NCBI GenBank assembly: GCA_049288015.1
Contig: JBAQGX010000003.1
Coordinates: forward strand, 138,034-202,033
DNA length: 64,000 nucleotides
Source: Candidatus Nanoarchaeia archaeon
Lineage (GTDB): Archaea; Nanobdellota; Nanobdellia; Pacearchaeales; GW2011-AR1
Direction of reading: 5' to 3'
In this document: piece by piece, positions 8,721 through 33,139 of the stretch
Numbering within the stretch: position 1 is the first letter of the stretch
How the letters are laid out: the number at the start of each line of letters is the position of its first letter
Made by a program: the position numbers and the translations under genes
The notes under the pieces: generated by a model
Databases searched by the model: none
What the model was told of the DNA's origin: nothing
Seen by the model: only the letters and a program-made list of their open reading frames with translations

Positions 8721-9356
8721 TTGAACTCAATTTCATCACCTTTAAAAGTAAACATTCTAAATTTAATTATGGATAATCTTGTTTTAGAAATAAAGAGAAA
8801 GCTCGTTCACATAAGCTCGGTTTTTTACATTATAATCTACTGCCTGATAAAAGAATTTTTCAGCCAGCAAGCAGCAATTTTGTCGCTTGTTTTTATCTTG
8901 ATATGCTTATCTTTCCTTGAATTTTTGAGAATGAAATTTAACAAAGAGATTCCATTCTTCCACCAGCTGTATCGTGAAAACGAAAGAGATACAGTTTCAG
9001 GAAGTATCTATCTTCTGATTGGAATTATCATAGCATTTTCTGCATTTGAATTCAATATTGCCGTAACCGCAATTTTAATGATGATTTTTGGAGATACGGC
9101 ATCAGCAATTATTGGAAGATTAGGCAAGCATAAAATAGATCATCTTAGTCGTTCATGGGAAGGAATAGCTGCAGAGTTCATTGTTGATCTGGTTGTAGGA
9201 TTTATCCTCCTGAACAATGTTGCGATTATTATTTTTATGGCCCTGATTGCAACAATCACAGAAACGTTGCTGAAACCTATTGATGATAATCTCGCTATTC
9301 CAATAGTTGCCGGATTTGCGGGCCAGGCACTGATGATGCTTTTAGGCCATTTATAG
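8721..9356 (+). CDS. CTP-dependent polyprenol/lipid kinase-type membrane protein (dolichol kinase or CDP-archaeol synthase-like)
   Basis: Multi-TM protein with the MMIFGDTASAIIGRLGKHKI motif typical of the CTP-transferase/dolichol-kinase superfamily. Confidence 0.5.
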   Translation: MNSISSPLKVNILNLIMDNLVLEIKRKLVHISSVFYIIIYCLIKEFFSQQAAILSLVFILICLSFLEFLRMKFNKEIPFFHQLYRENERDTVSGSIYLLIGIIIAFSAFEFNIAVTAILMMIFGDTASAIIGRLGKHKIDHLSRSWEGIAAEFIVDLVVGFILLNNVAIIIFMALIATITETLLKPIDDNLAIPIVAGFAGQALMMLLGHL

Positions 9357-19110: not shown

Positions 19111-20103
19111 AATTTTTTCTTAGAAAAATAACAATAAACAAGTACTCAACTCACCAGCTAGATTCTGAACATAATATAAATGAGGCTTTTAGTGGCTGCG
19201 TGCTGAAACCCTCGTGTTCTTGGGTCTTACACAGCAGCTCTATCAACGTCATCTTCTTTGACGGCCTTTGTTGAATCGTTTTGCGGGCTGCTTCGAGCTT
19301 AGATGCATTCAGCTCTTATCAGTCAGCGCGTAGCTTCGCGGCCTGCCAATTGACAACCGCACACCAGAGGCGCCCAATCCCCGTTCCTCTCGTACTAGAA
19401 GATTGTTCCACTCATTCAACGACACACCTAGTAGATATCATACAAACTGTCTCGCGACGTTCTTAACCCAGCTAACGATACCTTTTAATGCGTGAACTCC
19501 GACACCCTTAGCTGCTACTGCACAGCTAGGATAGGTAGAGCCGACAGCGATGTACCAAACCGCCCCGTCAATACGGACTATCGGGGGCGACAAGCCTGTT
19601 ATCCTTGGGGTACCTTTTCTATCAGACACGGCTTCCATTAAAAAAGCACGTGGGTTCACTAAGCCCGACTTTCATCCCTGCATTCCTTGCTTTTCAGAAT
19701 ACAGTCAGACAAGCTTTTGCCTTCGCACTCTGCTCCGGATTTCCAAGCCGGATGAGCTTGTCTTTGGGTCCTATCGATATCTTTTCGACAGGGCACCGCC
19801 CCAGTCAAACTGCCCGCCTGCTGCTGTCCCCATAAAGAGTAAGCAACCTTAGAAAAAATGAGTAGTATTACAAGTTCGCTCCGCCATCACCGAAATGACA
19901 GCTTCGACGCTCCTACCTATTCTATGCATCCTTTCTAAGATCACAACAACAAGTTGCAGTAAAGGTCCACAAGGTCTTCGCTTCCCACTAGGCGTCCGTG
20001 GCATTTTCGCCACACAGTATTTTCAGAAGGCTCAAATCAGGGACAGTGACGACCTCGTTAAACCATTCATGCAAGTCGTAATTCGTACGACAAGGTATTA
20101 CGC

Positions 20104-20780
20104 TCAATTATGTTACATCTCTTTCGAGAAGGTTAACCATTTCTGATTAACTCTGAATGTCGCCATTCAGTTCGGACTATATCTTAACCGTTTCCGGTTT
20201 CTGACGTATAGTCTCTGAGGATTTTAGATAATTCAATATTGGTTTGCGATTCATCTCTGATATTAGTTTAGCAATTTTGTCAAGTCCGTTTTTAGTGAGA
20301 TGTTCTTTTTTATTCATTAAATCAATAACTTCAGAAAAAAGTTCAAAGTCTTTTCTCTTTGAAGTATTCAATTTATTTTTATTGAAAAATTCAACTATTT
20401 TGTTGAGATTCTCCAAACCTCTCACCCTGAATTCTTTTCTTGTTCCATGAAAATCTGTTCTGTTAACTTTAACATCTCCAAAACCAAAATAATCCTTTAT
20501 TTTGTAAAGAACTTTTTCGTCTTTCTCATGTTGAACAATTCTAAATTCAAGTAAGACTTGCCATCCCAAACTCATTTCAGGAATTCTATTGATAGAGATA
20601 TGAAAACATCCTTCTCCATCTGTGAATCCTACAATCCATGAACCATCTAATCTTTCCTGCTGATTGTCTGCAGTCATAACATTTTCACAAAGACGAAATT
20701 TATTAAACTTGTCCTTGTAGTCTGACATTCTCAGAGTTTCCAGCATTTAGTCAGATTTTGATAAGGCAATCGTAATCTTT
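20104..20780 (-). mobile_element. ~677-nt intron in 23S rRNA domain IV (after ...CUUAAGGUA), archaeal bulge-helix-bulge (BHB) type, carrying a homing-endonuclease ORF
   Basis: The exon sequence is interrupted between CUUAAGGUA and GCGUAAUACCUUGUCG (E. coli ~1930 region). Only ~107 nt remain outside the ORF, too little for a group I ribozyme core. Boundaries are +/- a few nt. Confidence 0.7.
20177..20746 (-). CDS. LAGLIDADG homing endonuclease (intron-encoded)
   Basis: WIVGFTDGEGCF motif, 189 aa, lies entirely inside the 23S insertion. Confidence 0.85.
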   Translation of the reverse strand: MLETLRMSDYKDKFNKFRLCENVMTADNQQERLDGSWIVGFTDGEGCFHISINRIPEMSLGWQVLLEFRIVQHEKDEKVLYKIKDYFGFGDVKVNRTDFHGTRKEFRVRGLENLNKIVEFFNKNKLNTSKRKDFELFSEVIDLMNKKEHLTKNGLDKIAKLISEMNRKPILNYLKSSETIRQKPETVKI

Positions 20781-20814
<34 letters not shown>

Positions 20815-22813
20815 GATGGGTCTTAGCTCCCTTGAAAAAGAGTTTGAAACACCACCACTGGGCAGGTCTCACCGAGTATATACAGCTTTTCAGCTTAGCA
20901 CTCGGCTACGTTTTTGGTAAACAGTCGGGCCATCCTTGTAACTGTGATCTATCAATGCTCCTTGCGGACAAAGATAGACACCCCTTAAACCGAAGTTATG
21001 GGGCTAATATGCCGAATTCCCTTGATTTGTTTGACCTTTCATGTCTTAGCCTATTAAGCCAGAGCACCAGTGCCGGTTGTGGGTACAGTTAACTAAATTC
21101 GTTTAGCAATATATTTTTCACTGGCTCCCGGAGTCAGCGATTTTGTCCTGCAAATTTATACAGATCTTAGCATTACGCTCCCAATATTTCTTTGCAGAAG
21201 CATTCTCTCAAATGCTCGCTTATCCCGAAACGGTATATTACAAAAAATTTAGCTAGTAAATGAATATTAACATTTTTTCCATCGCTGTATTCAGTTAAGG
21301 TACAACTTAGGAACTGACTAACCCTTGGCTAACATATATTGCCAAGGAAACCTTGCTCTTACGACACTTTGCGTTTTCAGCAAAGTCACTTCTTACTATT
21401 GCCAAGATTCTCATTGCTTATCGCTCCACTCTTTGTCTCCAAAAAGCTTCTGCGCAATAAACACGCCTGCTTACTCGAACGCTCAAATGAGCGCCGCCGA
21501 AGTCTCGGTATTATGCTTAGCCCCGTCCATTTTCAGGGCCCTGAGCCTCGATGGGTGAGCTGTAACGCTTTCTTTAAATGATAGCTGCTTCTGAGCTTAC
21601 ATCCCCACTGTCTCAGGTTCAAGACACCTTTTGATACACTTAGCATAAATTTAGGGACCTTAACTTTGGTCTGGGTTATTCCCCTTTCGGAACGATACCT
21701 TACGCACCGCCCCTGTTTCATATTTTACGCAGCCAACAGCTTCCGAGTTGGAAAAAGTTCCGTAAGCATAAGCTCCTGCGAACTTTATCCGTACTATACA
21801 CCGCTGGCAAACTAAATACGACTATACGAAGGCATATTTCAGCAGGAACCAGCCATCGCCGAGTTAGATAGGCTTTTCACTCCTATTCTCAAGTCATCCA
21901 AGTATATGTACGTAACACCGGTTCAGTCCTCCATCCCCCTTTCGAGAGACTTCAACTTACTCAAGAATAGATCACCCGGCTTCAGGTCTGTCCCATATGA
22001 CTGACGCTGTTTCCAACTTGCTTTCGCTTCGGTTACTCTTCATAAAAGATTAGCCTCGCCATATAAGAAAACTCCTTGGCCCGTTCTTCGAAACGTACGA
22101 TACAACCCTTTTCCTTGCGGAAAGAGCAGTATCAATCTGTAGCTGTTAGATTTCAAATCTTTTCACACTCTGCTAAGAGTTCTTTTCAGCTTTCCCTCGC
22201 GGTACTAGTGCGCTATCGGACTTTGGTTCTATTTAGGGTTAGCGGTTAATTCCGCCATGTTCAGACCTCCAATCCAGGAGGCCCTACTCTTTGAGCAACT
22301 CCATATATCATTCGTCTACCGGGCTATCACCGTCTAAGGCCCCTCTTTCCAGAGGAGTTTGACTCCTATACTTAGGAATTTACGCTCACCACATCTCTGT
22401 TCTCTTTTCAAAGACAGATTCAGTTTGCCCTCTATCCTTTTCGCTCTCTGCTAATAAGGATATCATTATTTATTTTCTCTTCCTGCAGGTACTAAGATGT
22501 TTCAATTCCCTGCGTGGTTCCCCCTCTCGGGGTGATTCGGAGATCCAAGGTTCAAAGCTTGCATGCAGCTCGCCTCGGCTTATCGCAGCTTGCCACGTCC
22601 TTCATCAATTCCAAAGCCAAGCTATCCGTCTAACAGCATAAAAAATTACATTATGTCGTATGTTTTTACACATCTGCACAAATAAATTGTGCTCTAGCTA
22701 GTGAGTTGAGTACTTGTCTCATTGAATATAACTCCTCCTTCCGGAGAAGTGTTCTCAACATGATACATCGACGTAATCGATGCACCACCTCAACGTGTGA
22801 GTATGATCTGTAA

Positions 22814-22996
22814 TTAATAATTTATGTAATTTATTCCATGAACGATATCTTGCATATATCTTCTCATTTCGTCTACTTTCATTGCTCCCGAAAATCTACC
22901 AACGATTACTTGTGATTCTAATCCTTTTAGAGCAGCAGCTTGTTCAACATTCTCTCTTGGAGTTTCTTTTACTGCATATTCACTTTCCATTTCCAT
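22814..22996 (-). CDS. Small ORF (60 aa) in the 16S-23S spacer, second gene of the spacer module
   Basis: ATG at 22996 is preceded by GGAGGA 3 nt upstream. It overlaps the stop of the upstream spacer ORF by 17 nt. The listed alternative start is TTG at 23020. Confidence 0.4.
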   Translation of the reverse strand: MEMESEYAVKETPRENVEQAAALKGLESQVIVGRFSGAMKVDEMRRYMQDIVHGINYINY

Positions 22997-23501
22997 TTCC
23001 TCCGTTTTGTTTTTTGACAATATACTCTTGGATTATTGGATGCATTTCGTTAAATAGAATTGAGTTGTAATATCCCCATCTTCCTGTATCGTCGCTGATT
23101 GTCTTATAATATTCTTGAGCTATAGCTCTAACACCCTCTGGATGTATTCCTCTTGATATTGCTCCTCTGATCTCATTTGCAATTCTTGCTTCCACGTCGT
23201 CGATTCTAAGTTTAGTGTGAAGATTAATTGCGTGTCCTCCAGAAGGTCGGTTTCCTTCCTTGCTTCCCCAAGTCTGTCCGTACTTTTCAACATACATCAT
23301 TACTAGGTCGAACATCTTTCTGTCAGCGCATCCTAACTTTTTGTTCTCCTTATATTGGGTAATGTACTGATCGAACATAGGTTTTATGTTTATCTCTTCG
23401 AATGATTTGCCCTCTTCAATTGTGTCTACTAGTTCCGTAGCTAGCGCTAGTTCTAGTTCTCCTGCTTCTTGTCTTGTTAATGTGTCAATTTCGCTTTCCA
23501 T
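22980..23501 (-). CDS. Hypothetical acidic protein (173 aa) encoded inside the 16S-23S spacer
   Basis: Clean 173-codon ORF starting 25 nt downstream of the tRNA-Ala 3' end and ending before the 23S processing stem. No recognisable family. Confidence 0.5.
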   Translation of the reverse strand: MESEIDTLTRQEAGELELALATELVDTIEEGKSFEEINIKPMFDQYITQYKENKKLGCADRKMFDLVMMYVEKYGQTWGSKEGNRPSGGHAINLHTKLRIDDVEARIANEIRGAISRGIHPEGVRAIAQEYYKTISDDTGRWGYYNSILFNEMHPIIQEYIVKKQNGGNGNGK

Positions 23502-23525
23502 TTTTATTTTTCCATTCCAGAAGAA

Positions 23526-23596
23526 TGGACCTGCCGGGAATTGAACCCGGAACTCCTCGGTGCAAACGAGGTATTCTGCCGTTGGACTACAGGCCC
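23526..23596 (-). tRNA. tRNA-Ala (anticodon UGC), the spacer tRNA of the rRNA operon
   Basis: Manual fold of the reverse complement. Acceptor GGGCCUG/CAGGUCC, anticodon loop UUUGCAC, T-arm CCGGG-UUCAAUU-CCCGG, discriminator A. Confidence 0.85.
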
Positions 23597-23707
23597 TTGT
23601 TTTATTTTAGCCCGTAGTGGTTTTTAAATTTTGTTCAGTCAATATTATTTCCATAACAAAATGGAAAGTATGTAGGAATACCGACGAATATAATCTCGTA
23701 AAATTTT

Positions 23708-25148
23708 AGGAGGTGATCCATCTGCAGGTTCCCCTACAGATACCTTGTGACGACTTAACCTACCTCATCATGCTAGGATTCTCCTCTAATGAGTTTCATC
23801 TTAACATAACTTGGTTGGTTTGACGGGCAGTGTGTGCAAGAGACAGTGACATATTCACCGGGCAATGTTGATACCCGATTACTACGGATTCCGGTGTCAC
23901 GAGGGCGGGTTGCAGCCCTCGATCTAGACTGGGATAGACTTTAAGGGATTAGCTTCTCCTTTCGGAGTTGCATCCCATTGTATCTACCATTGACGCGCCC
24001 GTGTTGCCCAGGGCATTTAGGCTGTGCCACCTAACGTAGCCCACACTTTCATCCATGTTACCATGGCAATCTGTATATTGTACACGTAGTAAATATACAT
24101 GTGGGTCTTGCCTGTTACCTGATTTAACAGGTCACCTCACGGCACAGGCTGACGTCGGCTATGTAACCCCTCTCAGCGTGTCAGGTAAGCCCTTCAGACT
24201 GACCTTCATTCTGCTGTCGGTCCTGGTGAGGTTCACGGCGTGGAATCTGATTGAACCGCACGCGTCACCCGTTGTAGTGTCTCCCCGCCAATTCCTTTAA
24301 GTTTCGGTCTTGCGACTATACTTCCCAGGTAGCACACTCTTCGGCTTCCCTCAAGCACCAATGCCTCTCGAAGAGGCACTGATGTTTAGTGTGCAGTGTT
24401 TACTGCCGGGACTACATGGGTATCTAATCCATTTTGCGCCCCCGGCCTTCATCCCTCACTGTCAGAACTGTCCTCGTAAGATGCCTTCGCTGTTGTGAGT
24501 CCGTCTAAGATTAACGCATTTAACCGCTACTTCAAACGTACTTCTTACGTCTTCCAGTCTCTAGCCTAGTAGTACTCTATGCGCGCCCTATCCTTAAGAG
24601 ATAAGATTTCACAAAGAACTTGCTAGACAAGCTACGGATGTTTTAGACCCAATAAAGATGGCTGCGACTTGGACAGCTAGTATTACCGCGGCGGCTGGCA
24701 CTAGTCTTGCCCAGTCCTTATTCGCCAAACTTTTTAGATTTGGCAAAAGCTTCTCAATGAGAAGCACTCTGGCTCGCTCTGTCACACTTTCGTGTATTGC
24801 AGAAGATTCCCAGCTGCTGCACCCCGTAGGGCTGGGAGTAGTATCTCAGACTCCCTCTCAGGGCCTCTCCGCTAAGAGCCCTTATGGATCGTCGGCTTGG
24901 TGGGCAGTTACCCCGCCAACAACCTAATCCACCGCAGCCTCATCCTTGAGCACGAGTTTTAGAGATGAACCATTCCAGGGTATATCTCCTATCAGGTATT
25001 AATCTCAGTTTCCCGAGGATATCCCTGACTCAAGGGTAGATTAGCTACGTGTTACTGAGCAGTTCGCCTTCCATTGCAAGCAACAGAAAGACTTGCATGC
25101 CTAAGTGCAAACCAGAGAGCCGCAGCCGCCAGCAGGATCAACTGGATT
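23708..25148 (-). rRNA. rrs: 16S rRNA
   Basis: Plus strand at 23708 reads AGGAGGTGATCCATCTGCAGGTTCCCCTACAGATACCTTGTGACGACTT, the reverse complement of the 16S 3' end. The 5' end (reverse complement AUCCAGUUGAUCCUGCUGGCGG) is near 25148. A 17-19-bp processing stem flanks it (23664-23682 / 25239-25257). Confidence 0.85.
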
Positions 25149-25185: not shown

Positions 25186-25336
25186 TTTACTTTTTATATC
25201 CTGAATTTCCTAAAAACGGCTCGGCGAGAATTATCAATGGGTATTCCTACATACTTCATACCTTAACGTAAAACTTGTCATTATTAAGGCACTCATTTTG
25301 ACTGATAGACTTAGCTGATTTTATATTTATAAATGT
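25186..25336 (-). promoter_or_regulatory. rRNA operon promoter/leader region with candidate TATA boxes
   Basis: Minus-strand TTTATAAATATAAAATC (25318-25336) and GATATAAAAAG (25186-25203) lie upstream of the 16S processing stem. A palindrome AAAAACUAUCAUAGUUUUU sits next to the mature 16S 5' end. Confidence 0.4.
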
Positions 25337-30965: not shown

Positions 30966-31763
30966 TTATAAATAATTTTTTAGGCTTGAAATAACTTTCT
31001 CTCTGACTTTTTCAGACAAATCGAAAACATTTCCCATTTCTTCAATGCTTAATGTTCCACTTTCTCCTTTTTGCATTGCGAATATAGTCTCTTCGAATCC
31101 GGAAGTTGTAAGTCTCATCTCACTTGTGTCTTCCTCTTCTCTTGTTGGATCAACAACAAAATTGTCTCCTATTTTGTAGATTGTCAAGGATAAAGGAATT
31201 ATTTCTTTTGAAAGAGAAAGCTTCTTTTCATGCTTGTCATATAAAACTTTTCCGGTTTCTTCATCATATCCTGGAATCATTGTGCTGTTCAATGCAGCAA
31301 GTGCTGCAATTCCTGCAGCATCAAGCAGATTTCCATCATCATTTATTGAATAAACATCTATGAAAAGATTCCATACTTTCTCCCCTTCTTTTATGCATAG
31401 TTTTTCAAAATCAATATATTTGCTCTCTCTTATTCCTCTGTCCAGTATCCTTCCCATTTCAATTGCAGGTGTTTTTGGAGGTCCGCTTTCAAAATTTGAA
31501 GAACTCAATGGAGTTAGTTCAGCATTTGTCATCAGATTTCCCCTGTTTGGTGTGTCTGGGAAAGGTGTTGCAACATCCATTTTTATTCCGACTAGAACTT
31601 CAGTCTTCCCTATCTTTACTCTTGCGCTTCCTTCAGCATTTTTTGAAACTCCTGTTTCAATTTCTATCTTCCTGAATTCATCAAGTTTCCTTCCGTCAAA
31701 TCTTTTGCCATCTGAAAGATATCTTCTTATTATATTCTCGTTGAGTTTTCCTTCTTCTAACAT
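30966..31763 (-). CDS. rrp42: Exosome complex component Rrp42 (RNase PH-like, inactive subunit)
   Basis: RNase PH fold pattern DGR...DEFR...GSARVKIGKTEVLVGIK. Follows rrp41. Confidence 0.8.
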   Translation of the reverse strand: MLEEGKLNENIIRRYLSDGKRFDGRKLDEFRKIEIETGVSKNAEGSARVKIGKTEVLVGIKMDVATPFPDTPNRGNLMTNAELTPLSSSNFESGPPKTPAIEMGRILDRGIRESKYIDFEKLCIKEGEKVWNLFIDVYSINDDGNLLDAAGIAALAALNSTMIPGYDEETGKVLYDKHEKKLSLSKEIIPLSLTIYKIGDNFVVDPTREEEDTSEMRLTTSGFEETIFAMQKGESGTLSIEEMGNVFDLSEKVREKVISSLKNYL

Positions 31764-32474
31764 TTAATTTTTCTCCACGCTTTTTTTCAAAGCTTCTTTT
31801 TGTATTTCATGAATTTTCTTTGTTGCTTCTCTTGCAAGCTGAATAGCTTCTTTGAGCTGTTCCTTGCTTATTTTTCCATCAAGCTGCATGTGAGTTATTT
31901 CTCCGTCAGGAGTCATTGTTATAGGAATATCTGTAGGACCTTCTCCCTCTTCCCAATCCTCTTCAAGCTTGTTCACATCAACAACTAATTGTTTGTCAAG
32001 TTTTCCTATTGAAACACTGCTTACAAGACTCCTCATTGGAATTCCTGCCTGTGCAAGTGCAATTGCAGCTGCATTTATTCCTGCGCATCTTGTTGAAGCA
32101 TTTGCTTGAATGACATTTATGAAAACATCAACAACAGAATTTGGATATTTGTCTAGCATCAATATAGGCTCTAAAGCCCATTCTGTTATCTTGCTGATTT
32201 CGATGCTTCTTCTGTTCATTCCAGGACGTATTCTATCATTTACAGAGAAGCTGATCATGTTATATTCGCATCTTAGAATTCCTTTTTCAGGATCTTGTGC
32301 ATGTTGAGGATGCATTTTCCTAGGGCCATAAACTGCTGCTATTGCAATTGTGTCTCCGAACCCAAACATTGCGCTTCCATCTGCGTTTGGAACAACTCCT
32401 ACCTTAACAGTTACAGGTCTAAGTTCGTCAATCTTTCTTCCATCTGGTCTTTCGAATTCCTTTTCTTTTGTCAT
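31764..32474 (-). CDS. rrp41: Exosome complex exonuclease Rrp41 (RNase PH)
   Basis: RPDGRKIDELRPV...ADGSAMFGFGDT...TRCAGINAAAIAL pattern of the catalytic RNase PH subunit. Confidence 0.85.
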   Translation of the reverse strand: MTKEKEFERPDGRKIDELRPVTVKVGVVPNADGSAMFGFGDTIAIAAVYGPRKMHPQHAQDPEKGILRCEYNMISFSVNDRIRPGMNRRSIEISKITEWALEPILMLDKYPNSVVDVFINVIQANASTRCAGINAAAIALAQAGIPMRSLVSSVSIGKLDKQLVVDVNKLEEDWEEGEGPTDIPITMTPDGEITHMQLDGKISKEQLKEAIQLAREATKKIHEIQKEALKKSVEKN

Positions 32475-33139
32475 TTTTCCTTTTCCCTTTCAAACCATCT
32501 TTTCATCTCTTCAGTTAATCCTTCTAAGAAGAAATTTTCAGTTATGAACATTATAGCTTTTTTTGCAAACAACTCAGCTTCGGTATTTTCTCCGCTGATC
32601 CATATTATTCCATTCTGTCCGACAGTTATATTGCATTTTGTTTCTTCTTTTATCAAGTTTATCATGCTTCCTTCCTTTCCTATAACTCTTGGAACTTTGT
32701 TTGAATTTATTTTTATGATCATTCCATCATCTATCTTTCCAAGCCCGTGAACTCTTAATGTCAAATCAATTCCTCTTTTGTCTATGTTGACTATTTTTGC
32801 AACAACCATTTCCCCGAGATCAAGAGCTTCAGCAAATTCTCCTTGATTTACATATCTTGGAAATTCGCTCACTGGTAAGAATGCATTTTCAGGAGTATCA
32901 ATATCAATGAACCAGCCGCTTGATAATATGTTCACAGCCTGTCCGATAACAACATTTCCTTTTCTTGGTTGATATACACCTGAGATTGGAATAATTCTTA
33001 CAAGTCTGTCCTGTTCTTCAGCTACTCCAAATCTTGTTGAGACTATTTCATCATTTCTTTTTTCTGTCCACTCGCCGGGAAGATATTCTTTTCCTATTAC
33101 AATTGTTTCTCCAGGAATAACTAATTTTCTTTCTGTCAT
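32471..33139 (-). CDS. rrp4: Exosome RNA-binding subunit Rrp4 (N-terminal domain + S1 + KH)
   Basis: Domain-order pattern and a GKEGSMINLIKEETKC KH-like GxxG region. Immediately upstream of rrp41. Confidence 0.8.
   Translation of the reverse strand: MTERKLVIPGETIVIGKEYLPGEWTEKRNDEIVSTRFGVAEEQDRLVRIIPISGVYQPRKGNVVIGQAVNILSSGWFIDIDTPENAFLPVSEFPRYVNQGEFAEALDLGEMVVAKIVNIDKRGIDLTLRVHGLGKIDDGMIIKINSNKVPRVIGKEGSMINLIKEETKCNITVGQNGIIWISGENTEAELFAKKAIMFITENFFLEGLTEEMKRWFEREKEK

Follow-up and report, generated by a model that had tools for sequence, protein, structure and literature searches.

The spacer between the 16S and 23S ribosomal RNA (rRNA) genes of a Candidatus Nanoarchaeia archaeon (GenBank assembly GCA_049288015.1) carries two small, overlapping open reading frames (ORFs), termed ORF-A and ORF-B here, directly downstream of the tRNA-Ala gene. 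They lie in a 64,000-nucleotide stretch of contig JBAQGX010000003.1 (positions 138,034 to 202,033), which was analyzed as a whole and is referred to below as the window. With a probability of about 0.72, the two ORFs constitute a lineage-specific accessory cassette that occupies a hypervariable expression slot and is transcribed together with tRNA-Ala and 23S rRNA. The amount of an accessory protein would then be tied to rRNA transcription, its gene being expressed from what may be called a 'free-expression' slot. Annotation usually regards rRNA spacers as non-coding and in many cases masks or passes over them; here, such a spacer holds genes with a ratio of nonsynonymous to synonymous substitution rates (dN/dS) of 0.11, a clear mark of purifying selection, and the arrangement would imply that an archaeon uses a segment of a precursor, co-transcribed with tRNA-Ala and 23S rRNA, as messenger RNA (mRNA). 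The locus offers a compact natural system for studying the origin and evolution of orphan genes, the punctuation of mRNAs by tRNA and rRNA processing, and the coming apart of linked operons in DPANN archaea.

Two Protein-Coding Genes in an Enlarged rRNA Spacer

On the minus strand of the window, Rfam and ARAGORN place the genes in the order 16S rRNA, tRNA-Ala, ORF-A (173 amino acids, aa), ORF-B (58-60 aa), a pre-23S leader of ~160 nt and 23S rRNA (Table 1). The distance from the tRNA to 23S is 872 nt and the entire 16S-23S spacer measures 1054 nt, compared with a mean of 419 +/- 170 bp in a survey of complete genomes that used 1500 bp as the cutoff for 'unlinked' genes (bioRxiv 705046). An earlier note on this DNA, prepared from the sequence alone, had drawn attention to protein ORFs in an enlarged spacer, co-oriented with the rRNAs and situated between tRNA-Ala and the 23S processing stem. 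These observations hold, as does the position that it gave for the 5' arm of that stem: over 25 nt, 22693-22717 is 96% complementary to 19138-19162, and the pairing extends to ~40 bp. The operon still looks linked, its spacer being shorter than the 1500-bp cutoff, its processing stems intact and its genes co-oriented. The order 16S, tRNA-Ala and 23S on one strand recurs in the related sequences L004, L010, L011 and L013-L021. tRNA-Ala is identical in the window, L004, L011 and L022, and the pre-23S leader hardly varies when the window is aligned with L004 and L011; its identity to the leader of L022 is 98.1%. The stretch from 16S to tRNA-Ala spans 110-111 nt in the clade of the window; it measures 341-559 nt in L018 (5217-5557), L015 (2837-3218) and L013 (13171-13729).

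Judged by codon usage and by the pattern of substitutions, ORF-A and ORF-B are real protein-coding genes. A codon model derived from 30 long ORFs in the window gave a log-likelihood ratio of +0.383 bits/codon for ORF-A and +0.475 for ORF-B, compared with 0.15-0.47 for the genome's genes; the other five frames scored -0.37 to -0.99 bits/codon for ORF-A and -0.37 to -1.33 over both ORFs. A close relative, L022, was found as a member of a 90% cluster, and its ORF-A differs by 58 substitutions, which fall 11/8/39 on the three codon positions (p = 1.4e-7) and are accompanied by no indels. With dS 0.48 and dN 0.052, dN/dS amounts to 0.11; 18 aa changes are seen against 42 expected under neutrality, the minimum in 20000 simulations being 29 (P < 5e-5). 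For ORF-B, the same comparison gives dN/dS 0.47, with 14 aa changes against 19.6 expected neutrally (P = 0.0055). By these measures, purifying selection acts on both ORFs, less on ORF-B.

The same picture extends to more distant relatives. Translated searches (tblastn) yielded in-frame matches of 61-67 bits in L004 and L011, with off-frame and reverse controls at or below 37 bits. At the nucleotide level, blastn of the ORF region against L004 and L011 returned no match, the region being too diverged; despite this, the ORFs stay open in four lineages. As for an RNA function, the ORF region matched no Rfam family, and its predicted folding did not exceed that of shuffled controls (z = +0.63).

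The 173-codon ORF begins where the earlier note had placed it, 25 nt past tRNA-Ala: its ATG at 23501 is the 25th nucleotide beyond the tRNA, and its stop lies at 22980. ORF-B occupies a different frame, with in-frame ATGs at 22996 and 22990 and a stop codon at 22816-22814; its conserved core, V.VGRF..AM...Y...NYI.Y, maps to 22817-22909. Since the Shine-Dalgarno sequence GGAGGA precedes ATG 22990 by 7 nt and ATG 22996 by 1 nt, the former is better spaced and the likelier start, in agreement with the NCBI annotation (58 aa). The overlap with ORF-A is 11 nt from ATG 22990 and 17 nt from ATG 22996. The upstream codon had been taken as the start before; it exists, and the 17-nt overlap given for it is right, but GGAGGA lies 1 nt ahead of it and not 3. 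Predicted tryptic peptides of ORF-A and ORF-B include, for example, SFEEINIKPMFDQYITQYK and WGYYNSILFNEMHPIIQEYIVK.

Modular Architecture and Rapid Divergence

Alignments and structure models divide ORF-A into two three-helix modules, D1 and D2, separated by a disordered linker (aa 76-98), with ORF-B forming a tail module, T. D2 is marked by the motif WGYY..LF..HPIIQEYI. In hhalign comparisons, D1 proves homologous to D2 (probability 88.7%, E 2.5e-6) and also matches an extra ORF of L004 (94.7%); the cassette can therefore be described as a tandem array of one ~80-aa domain followed by a tail. It is carried at the same position by 4/4 lineages of one genus-level clade (the window, L022, L004 and L011), in which the modules are distributed differently over ORFs: [D1-D2] + [T] in the window and L022, [D1] + [extra D copy] + [D2-T] in L004, and [D1] + [D2] + [T] in L011. 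The linker of ORF-A is the place at which stop and restart codons occur in other lineages. T is conserved in L004, where it is fused to D2, as well as in L011 and L022; judging from the single polypeptide in L004, it probably acts with D2. Two ORFs are indeed present in the window, as first described, but a fixed two-gene unit is less apt than three modules whose division into ORFs varies by lineage.

ORF-A is acidic (pI 5.3; D1 4.55, D2 8.6), as is ORF-B (pI 5.2). AlphaFold2, run with a shallow alignment, models ORF-A as two three-helix units joined by the disordered linker (pLDDT 59). For the concatenation of ORF-A and ORF-B, helical units were again obtained (pLDDT 55.7), and T was not docked with confidence.

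The cassette has changed far more than its surroundings. The 16S genes of the window and L004 are ~97.5% identical over the blastn segment that covers the whole gene and 99% identical in the last 620 nt. Ten neighboring genes compared between the same two lineages show 84-95% aa identity, dN 0.03-0.09, dS 0.7-1.9 and dN/dS 0.03-0.11. For the cassette, all three pairings of the window, L004 and L011 give 35-40% aa identity, dN 0.56-0.65, dS 1.05-1.5 and dN/dS 0.37-0.62. On the basis of dN, the cassette has therefore diverged ~10 times faster than the neighboring proteins, and few positions differ among the three lineages in the tRNA trailer and the ~160-nt pre-23S leader that flank it. The divergence between sister lineages is several times that predicted by the short-range dN/dS of 0.11. 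This excess may stem from episodes of relaxed or positive selection, or from long-standing alleles swapped by way of the invariant flanks. Single samples contain more than one allele, with L011 and L022 both from JGI 3300081534 and L002 and L006 both from ERZ25039473. Within the L004 lineage, no polymorphism was found among copies from six samples, which were all identical, with L010 differing by indels alone.

The L010 spacer carries 4 indels (ERZ25039xxx contigs). Compared with L004, the sequences L010, L005 and L006 also show frameshift-type splits in several genes, among them those for ribosomal protein S2, a short-chain dehydrogenase and a P-type ATPase. Indel errors of long-read sequencing are the most likely cause, and the interrupted ORFs of L010 should therefore not be taken for pseudogenization.

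A Variable Slot with Conserved Borders

Public collections were scanned with the exact 3' 46 nt of tRNA-Ala, a pattern that retrieved L012-L021. Among 185,579 species genomes there was one match, the L004 species, ending at a contig edge; metagenomes supplied nine further contigs with this sequence. The tRNA-to-23S spacers of these nine contigs measure 191, 234, 347, 496, 497, 517, 517, 579 and 627 nt, and across lineages the range is 191 to 1071 nt with shared flanks. The trailer TTCTTYTNGAATGGA is common to all nine contigs, most of which also have the junction (T)CACAAATCATAYTCA, and the variable part lies exactly between the two. The corresponding trailer of the window, TTCTTCTGGAATGGA, was found in 12/12 compared spacers, two empty ones among them, and the junction TTACAGATCATACTCA is kept in relatives at both occupied and empty sites.

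These relatives are 87-89% identical to the window in the 3' part of 16S. In L018 and L019 (~88% 16S identity), the slot is essentially empty. Other lineages contain small ORFs of 51-95 aa, which start 25-85 nt past the tRNA and show neither similarity to D1, D2 or T nor a significant Pfam match. Gene-like codon scores of several suggest that these, too, may be real genes (L013, 0.41; L015, 0.31; L020, 0.25; the 72-aa ORF of L016, 0.20). The five slot ORFs of other lineages that are present in the protein collection are all singleton clusters without close variants. The 55-aa ORF of L014, which is not in that collection, displays a four-cysteine pattern, C-x11-C-x7-C-x3-C. In L015 and L020, the flanks are ~95% identical and the ORFs cannot be aligned; homology between these two ORFs was considered and rejected (BLASTP E = 0.56).

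Within the sequences compared, the D1/D2/T cassette is confined to the genus-level clade, and the slot itself appears to be a general position of fast turnover. The earlier note had proposed that spacers of relatives be used to decide between insertion and conservation. In this comparison, L018 and L019 have short spacers with an empty slot, and each of the four clade lineages retains the cassette.

Predicted Expression and RNA Processing

The cassette fills the whole variable interval: it starts 24 nt past the tRNA, the first 15 nt being the trailer, and ends 0 nt before the junction. Because the 24 nt between tRNA and ATG leave no room for a promoter, the cassette should have none of its own and should therefore be transcribed with tRNA-Ala and 23S. 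No terminator-like run of five or more T was found on the sense strand in the spacer. Transcription would start upstream, at the rRNA promoter or at the TATA-like element TTTAAAAA just before the tRNA. This candidate internal promoter sits in a conserved block, AAAATTTAAAAACCACTACGG, at the same distance from the tRNA in the window, L004 and L015.

Processing of the tRNA 3' end would set the 5' end of the mRNA and leave an A-rich leader of 24 nt lacking a Shine-Dalgarno sequence; cleavage within the ~40-bp 23S processing stem would set the 3' end. ORF-B may then be translated by coupling, through the GGAGGA within the end of ORF-A and the 11-nt overlap, features that are usual for downstream genes translated in this way. 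As a point of comparison, a Shine-Dalgarno core occurs within 22 nt of the start in 8/47 long ORFs of the window, most having an A-rich upstream region that ends in AAA. The clearest such motifs precede closely packed downstream genes, for example, 30966-31763 and 32471-33139.

Two processing landmarks can be regarded as secure, namely, the 3' end of the tRNA and the 23S stem. In minimum free energy (MFE) cofolds, the latter pairs almost perfectly over ~40 bp, and the stem around 16S is a perfect 17-bp helix. Release of the mRNA by the same bulge-helix-bulge (BHB) cleavages that excise the tRNA and 23S, as envisaged in the earlier note, was not borne out, as MFE structures, the only ones examined, contain no canonical 3-4-3 BHB in either stem. 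Stems of this kind may point to processing that bypasses EndA, perhaps as a substrate of the RNase III-like type, or else to a different fold. In some archaea, a BHB has been reported to be missing at 16S (PMC12918454).

Family Searches and Comparison with Known Systems

The two proteins belong to no family named in the libraries searched, as had been supposed from their sequences. Pfam gave no match to ORF-A or ORF-B (none at E <= 1), and searches of PHROGs, NCBIfam and PADLOC returned nothing below E about 0.04, far short of curated cutoffs. Foldseek comparison of the AlphaFold2 models with the PDB found nothing below E 0.25. Searches of the PDB by sequence and by profile produced a single match, one of 22 bits to LtaS (E 6.7e-4) in a gappy region of the concatenated three-lineage profile, which was judged spurious. 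Among viral contigs, 186 pattern matches were obtained and 0 were confirmed by tblastn. When 1.84 billion cluster representatives were searched exhaustively with phmmer, three partial homologues emerged, each directly after tRNA-Ala in related metagenomic rRNA operons, and among about 15 billion proteins no homologue was found elsewhere than in this slot. Queried with ORF-A and with the alignment of three lineages, a word-indexed protein search returned the query alone; it missed relatives present in the collection and is uninformative. In the literature, no description was found of spacer-encoded proteins in Nanoarchaeia or DPANN.

Protein genes linked to tRNAs in polycistronic transcripts are familiar from the thrU-tyrU-glyT-thrT-tufB operon of Escherichia coli and from mitochondrial 'tRNA punctuation'. 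The window resembles these systems in that a coding sequence directly follows a co-oriented tRNA, with ORF-A 24 nt past it and neither a promoter nor a run of five or more T between, and tRNA processing would define the mRNA end. Unlike them, the tRNA and mRNA here are placed between 16S and 23S, the 3' side abuts the 23S stem, and the case is known from sequence. A second parallel is provided by the ORFs of 23S intervening sequences (S23p/IVS protein, PF05635) in Leptospira, Coxiella and others, which share with the cassette a small all-helical protein, a place in the rRNA transcription unit, removal during maturation (predicted in the case of the cassette) and a patchy distribution. By contrast, the present proteins are archaeal, consist of repeated three-helix units plus a tail peptide, and are encoded in the spacer upstream of the 23S 5' end; neither ORF matches PF05635 (no Pfam match at E <= 1) or lies inside 23S.

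LAGLIDADG endonucleases of archaeal rRNA introns are likewise encoded by protein genes in rRNA operons. Their variable presence among relatives may have a counterpart in the slot, which is empty in L018 and L019 and filled with unrelated ORFs in other lineages. ORF-A and ORF-B, however, show no endonuclease motif or profile, are not located in an intron, and occupy one locus in all four clade members. No meaningful match to an endonuclease domain was found in Pfam, PHROG or NCBIfam, whereas a control ORF in the 23S of the window matched PF00961 (E 1e-25). That control belongs to a low-GC insertion of 676 nt at 20105-20780, in which the ORF at 20177-20746 on the minus strand encodes a 189-aa LAGLIDADG endonuclease. 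The insertion, which probably represents a mobile intron of the rRNA gene, is absent from L004 and L010 (23S of 2814 nt, compared with 3487 nt in the window). No intron of group I or group II passed the gathering threshold of Rfam. The lengths of other 23S genes, 3331 nt in L019 (4092-7422) and 3050 nt in L014 (5037-8086) against 2814 nt in L004, suggest further, different insertions.

With type II toxin-antitoxin systems, the cassette shares two small, adjacent, co-directional genes that overlap by 11 (or 17) nt. It differs in having no match in Pfam, NCBIfam or PADLOC and in comprising 2 or 3 ORFs, with D2-T forming one protein in L004. Finally, unlinked or expanded rRNA operons have been described in DPANN and other symbionts (Brewer et al., bioRxiv 705046; PMC8997704). 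In both situations, protein-coding sequence separates 16S from 23S in an archaeon with a reduced genome, but the spacer here is shorter than 1500 bp, the stems are intact and the genes are co-oriented.

Weighing the Alternatives

Several points weigh against an accessory cassette expressed from the slot. Four lineages are known, and the distribution may be under-sampled. ORF-B by itself lacks a significant third-position bias (p = 0.08), and among the deep lineages dN/dS of 0.37-0.62 with saturated dS means that large parts of the proteins are weakly constrained. The structure models are of low confidence (pLDDT 56-59) and give no functional lead. ORF-A has no Shine-Dalgarno sequence and a leader of 24 nt, and no canonical BHB marks the downstream cleavage in the cofolds. 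Co-transcription, processing sites and translation are all inferred from sequence.

The alternative that survives best, although a minority possibility, is that the operon is already split: 16S would be transcribed separately, and tRNA-Ala, ORF-A, ORF-B and 23S would form a tRNA-led transcript from an internal promoter, as an intermediate toward the unlinked rRNA genes of DPANN archaea. Such unlinking is frequent in DPANN (PMC8997704), and the TATA-like TTTAAAAA, ~25 nt upstream of the tRNA, is conserved in the window, L004 and L015. Yet the element is recognized by resemblance to a consensus, it is not conserved in L013, L014 or L018, the 16S stem spans 16S as in a normal co-transcript, and no T-run terminator follows 16S. 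Except for the promoter used, a split operon is compatible with the accessory-cassette explanation.

It is unlikely that the cassette has a dedicated ribosomal role, as a ribosomal protein or assembly chaperone that is peculiar to the lineage and whose amount follows that of rRNA. A position in the rRNA transcription unit would couple dosage to rRNA synthesis, and both the purifying selection on ORF-A and the occupancy of 4/4 clade lineages fit such a role. On the other side, the proteins are acidic (pI 5.2-5.3; D1 4.55), unlike rRNA-binding proteins, and resemble no ribosomal or biogenesis family; dN is ~10 times that of the neighbors, and module number and fusion state vary by lineage. In L018 and L019 nothing occupies the site, which suggests normal rRNA maturation without the cassette, and in other lineages it holds unrelated ORFs. 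The ribosome-biogenesis factor suggested in the earlier note thus fits poorly with a gene that evolves ~10 times faster than its neighbors at a site that is vacant or otherwise occupied in lineages with ~88% 16S identity.

The other origin proposed there, a selfish or mobile insertion, finds still less support and is quite improbable, whether as a free-standing homing-type element or as a toxin-antitoxin pair harbored in the rRNA operon. The presence and content of the slot do vary among relatives between sharply conserved borders, the genes are small, overlapping and fast-evolving, and the 23S of the same operon bears a LAGLIDADG-encoding insertion that is probably mobile. Against this, Pfam, PHROG, PADLOC and NCBIfam reveal no nuclease, integrase, transposase, toxin or antitoxin domain; no viral contig holds a relative, and no copy was found outside the slot. 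Codon usage is native, ORF-A is under purifying selection, all clade members are occupied, and the ORF split is not a fixed pair. Reading of the cassette borders in the window showed no terminal repeats or target duplications; the sole repeat of this sort, a 7-nt GATTAAT, flanks the L016 insert on either side.

That the ORFs are accidents of a purine-rich, AT-rich spacer that has expanded and in which the RNA alone matters is very improbable. In its favor, 7/5000 Markov shuffles of the spacer contained an ORF of 173 or more codons (0.14%, low yet not zero), no homologues occur outside the clade and the models are of low confidence, but dN/dS of 0.11, the third-position bias (p = 1.4e-7), 0/20000 neutral simulations matching, native codon usage in the ORF frame alone, ORFs open and modules kept in four diverged lineages, and the lack of an RNA family match or excess RNA structure speak against the randomness that the earlier note had allowed for.

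The selection pattern (purifying at short range, with very rapid change at longer range), duplication and fission or fusion, clade restriction with an empty site in relatives, native codons and lack of mobility genes argue against a core ribosome-biogenesis factor as well as a recognizable selfish element and favor an accessory cassette. As to its role, an association with the ribosome or pre-rRNA is doubtful, and a conflict or addiction function is rather more so; most of the weight falls on other roles, among them that of a young gene whose function is marginal. Tentatively, the slot may be viewed as a cradle in which orphan protein genes arise or are captured, duplicate, fuse or split, come under selection and are replaced. 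Sequence in the slot would be transcribed at the rRNA level and freed by tRNA and rRNA processing, and growth may proceed by tandem duplication, as exemplified by D1, the extra D copy in L004 and D2. If so, the rRNA spacer of these reduced-genome archaea would breed orphan proteins and mark a first step toward the unlinking of rRNA genes.

Feature Coordinates and Additional Observations

Table 1. Features of the rRNA operon in the window and slot regions of related sequences
Feature	Sequence	Position	Strand	Basis and remarks
ORF-A, 173 aa	window	22980..23501	(-)	NCBI WAU65_02175, hypothetical protein; D1, disordered linker, D2
D1 module (aa 1-85), acidic three-helix unit	window	23247..23501	(-)	alignments; AlphaFold2 helices 4-30, 39-55, 61-74; pI 4.55
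D2 module (aa 94-167), second three-helix unit	window	23001..23222	(-)	alignment; AlphaFold2 helices 94-117, 121-139, 148-167
ORF-B, 58 aa	window	22814..22990	(-)	NCBI WAU65_02170, hypothetical protein; alternative start 22996 (60 aa); tail module T
Shine-Dalgarno GGAGGA for ORF-B	window	22998..23003	(-)	within ORF-A end; read from sequence
A-rich leader AAAATAAAA ahead of ORF-A, no Shine-Dalgarno	window	23502..23510	(-)	read from sequence
Conserved tRNA trailer TTCTTCTGGAATGGA	window	23511..23525	(-)	upstream border of variable slot
Conserved junction TTACAGATCATACTCA	window	22798..22813	(-)	directly 3' of TAA stop; downstream border of variable slot
tRNA-Ala (UGC)	window	23526..23596	(-)	ARAGORN and Rfam
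TATA-like TTTAAAAA	window	23621..23628	(-)	~25 nt upstream of tRNA-Ala; candidate internal promoter
16S processing stem, 3' arm	window	23666..23682	(-)	pairs with 25240-25256; 17-nt, 100% complementary inverted repeat
16S rRNA gene	window	23708..25148	(-)	Rfam RF01959, 1293 bits
Pre-23S leader	window	22654..22797	(-)	holds 5' arm of 23S processing stem (22693-22735), pairs with 19122-19162
23S rRNA gene	window	19167..22653	(-)	Rfam RF02540, 2060 bits; carries 676-nt insertion at 20105-20780
Slot region with ORF of 51 aa	L013	12753-13099
Slot region with ORF of 55 aa	L014	4520-5036		ORF not in protein collection
Slot region with ORF of 68 aa	L015	2187-2765
Slot region with ORF of 72 aa	L016	1484-1979
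Slot region with ORF of 77 aa	L020	110-736

Elsewhere in L013, tRNA matches of 115 and 121 nt occur at 9053-9167 and 1688-1808, respectively, and probably represent intron-containing genes.

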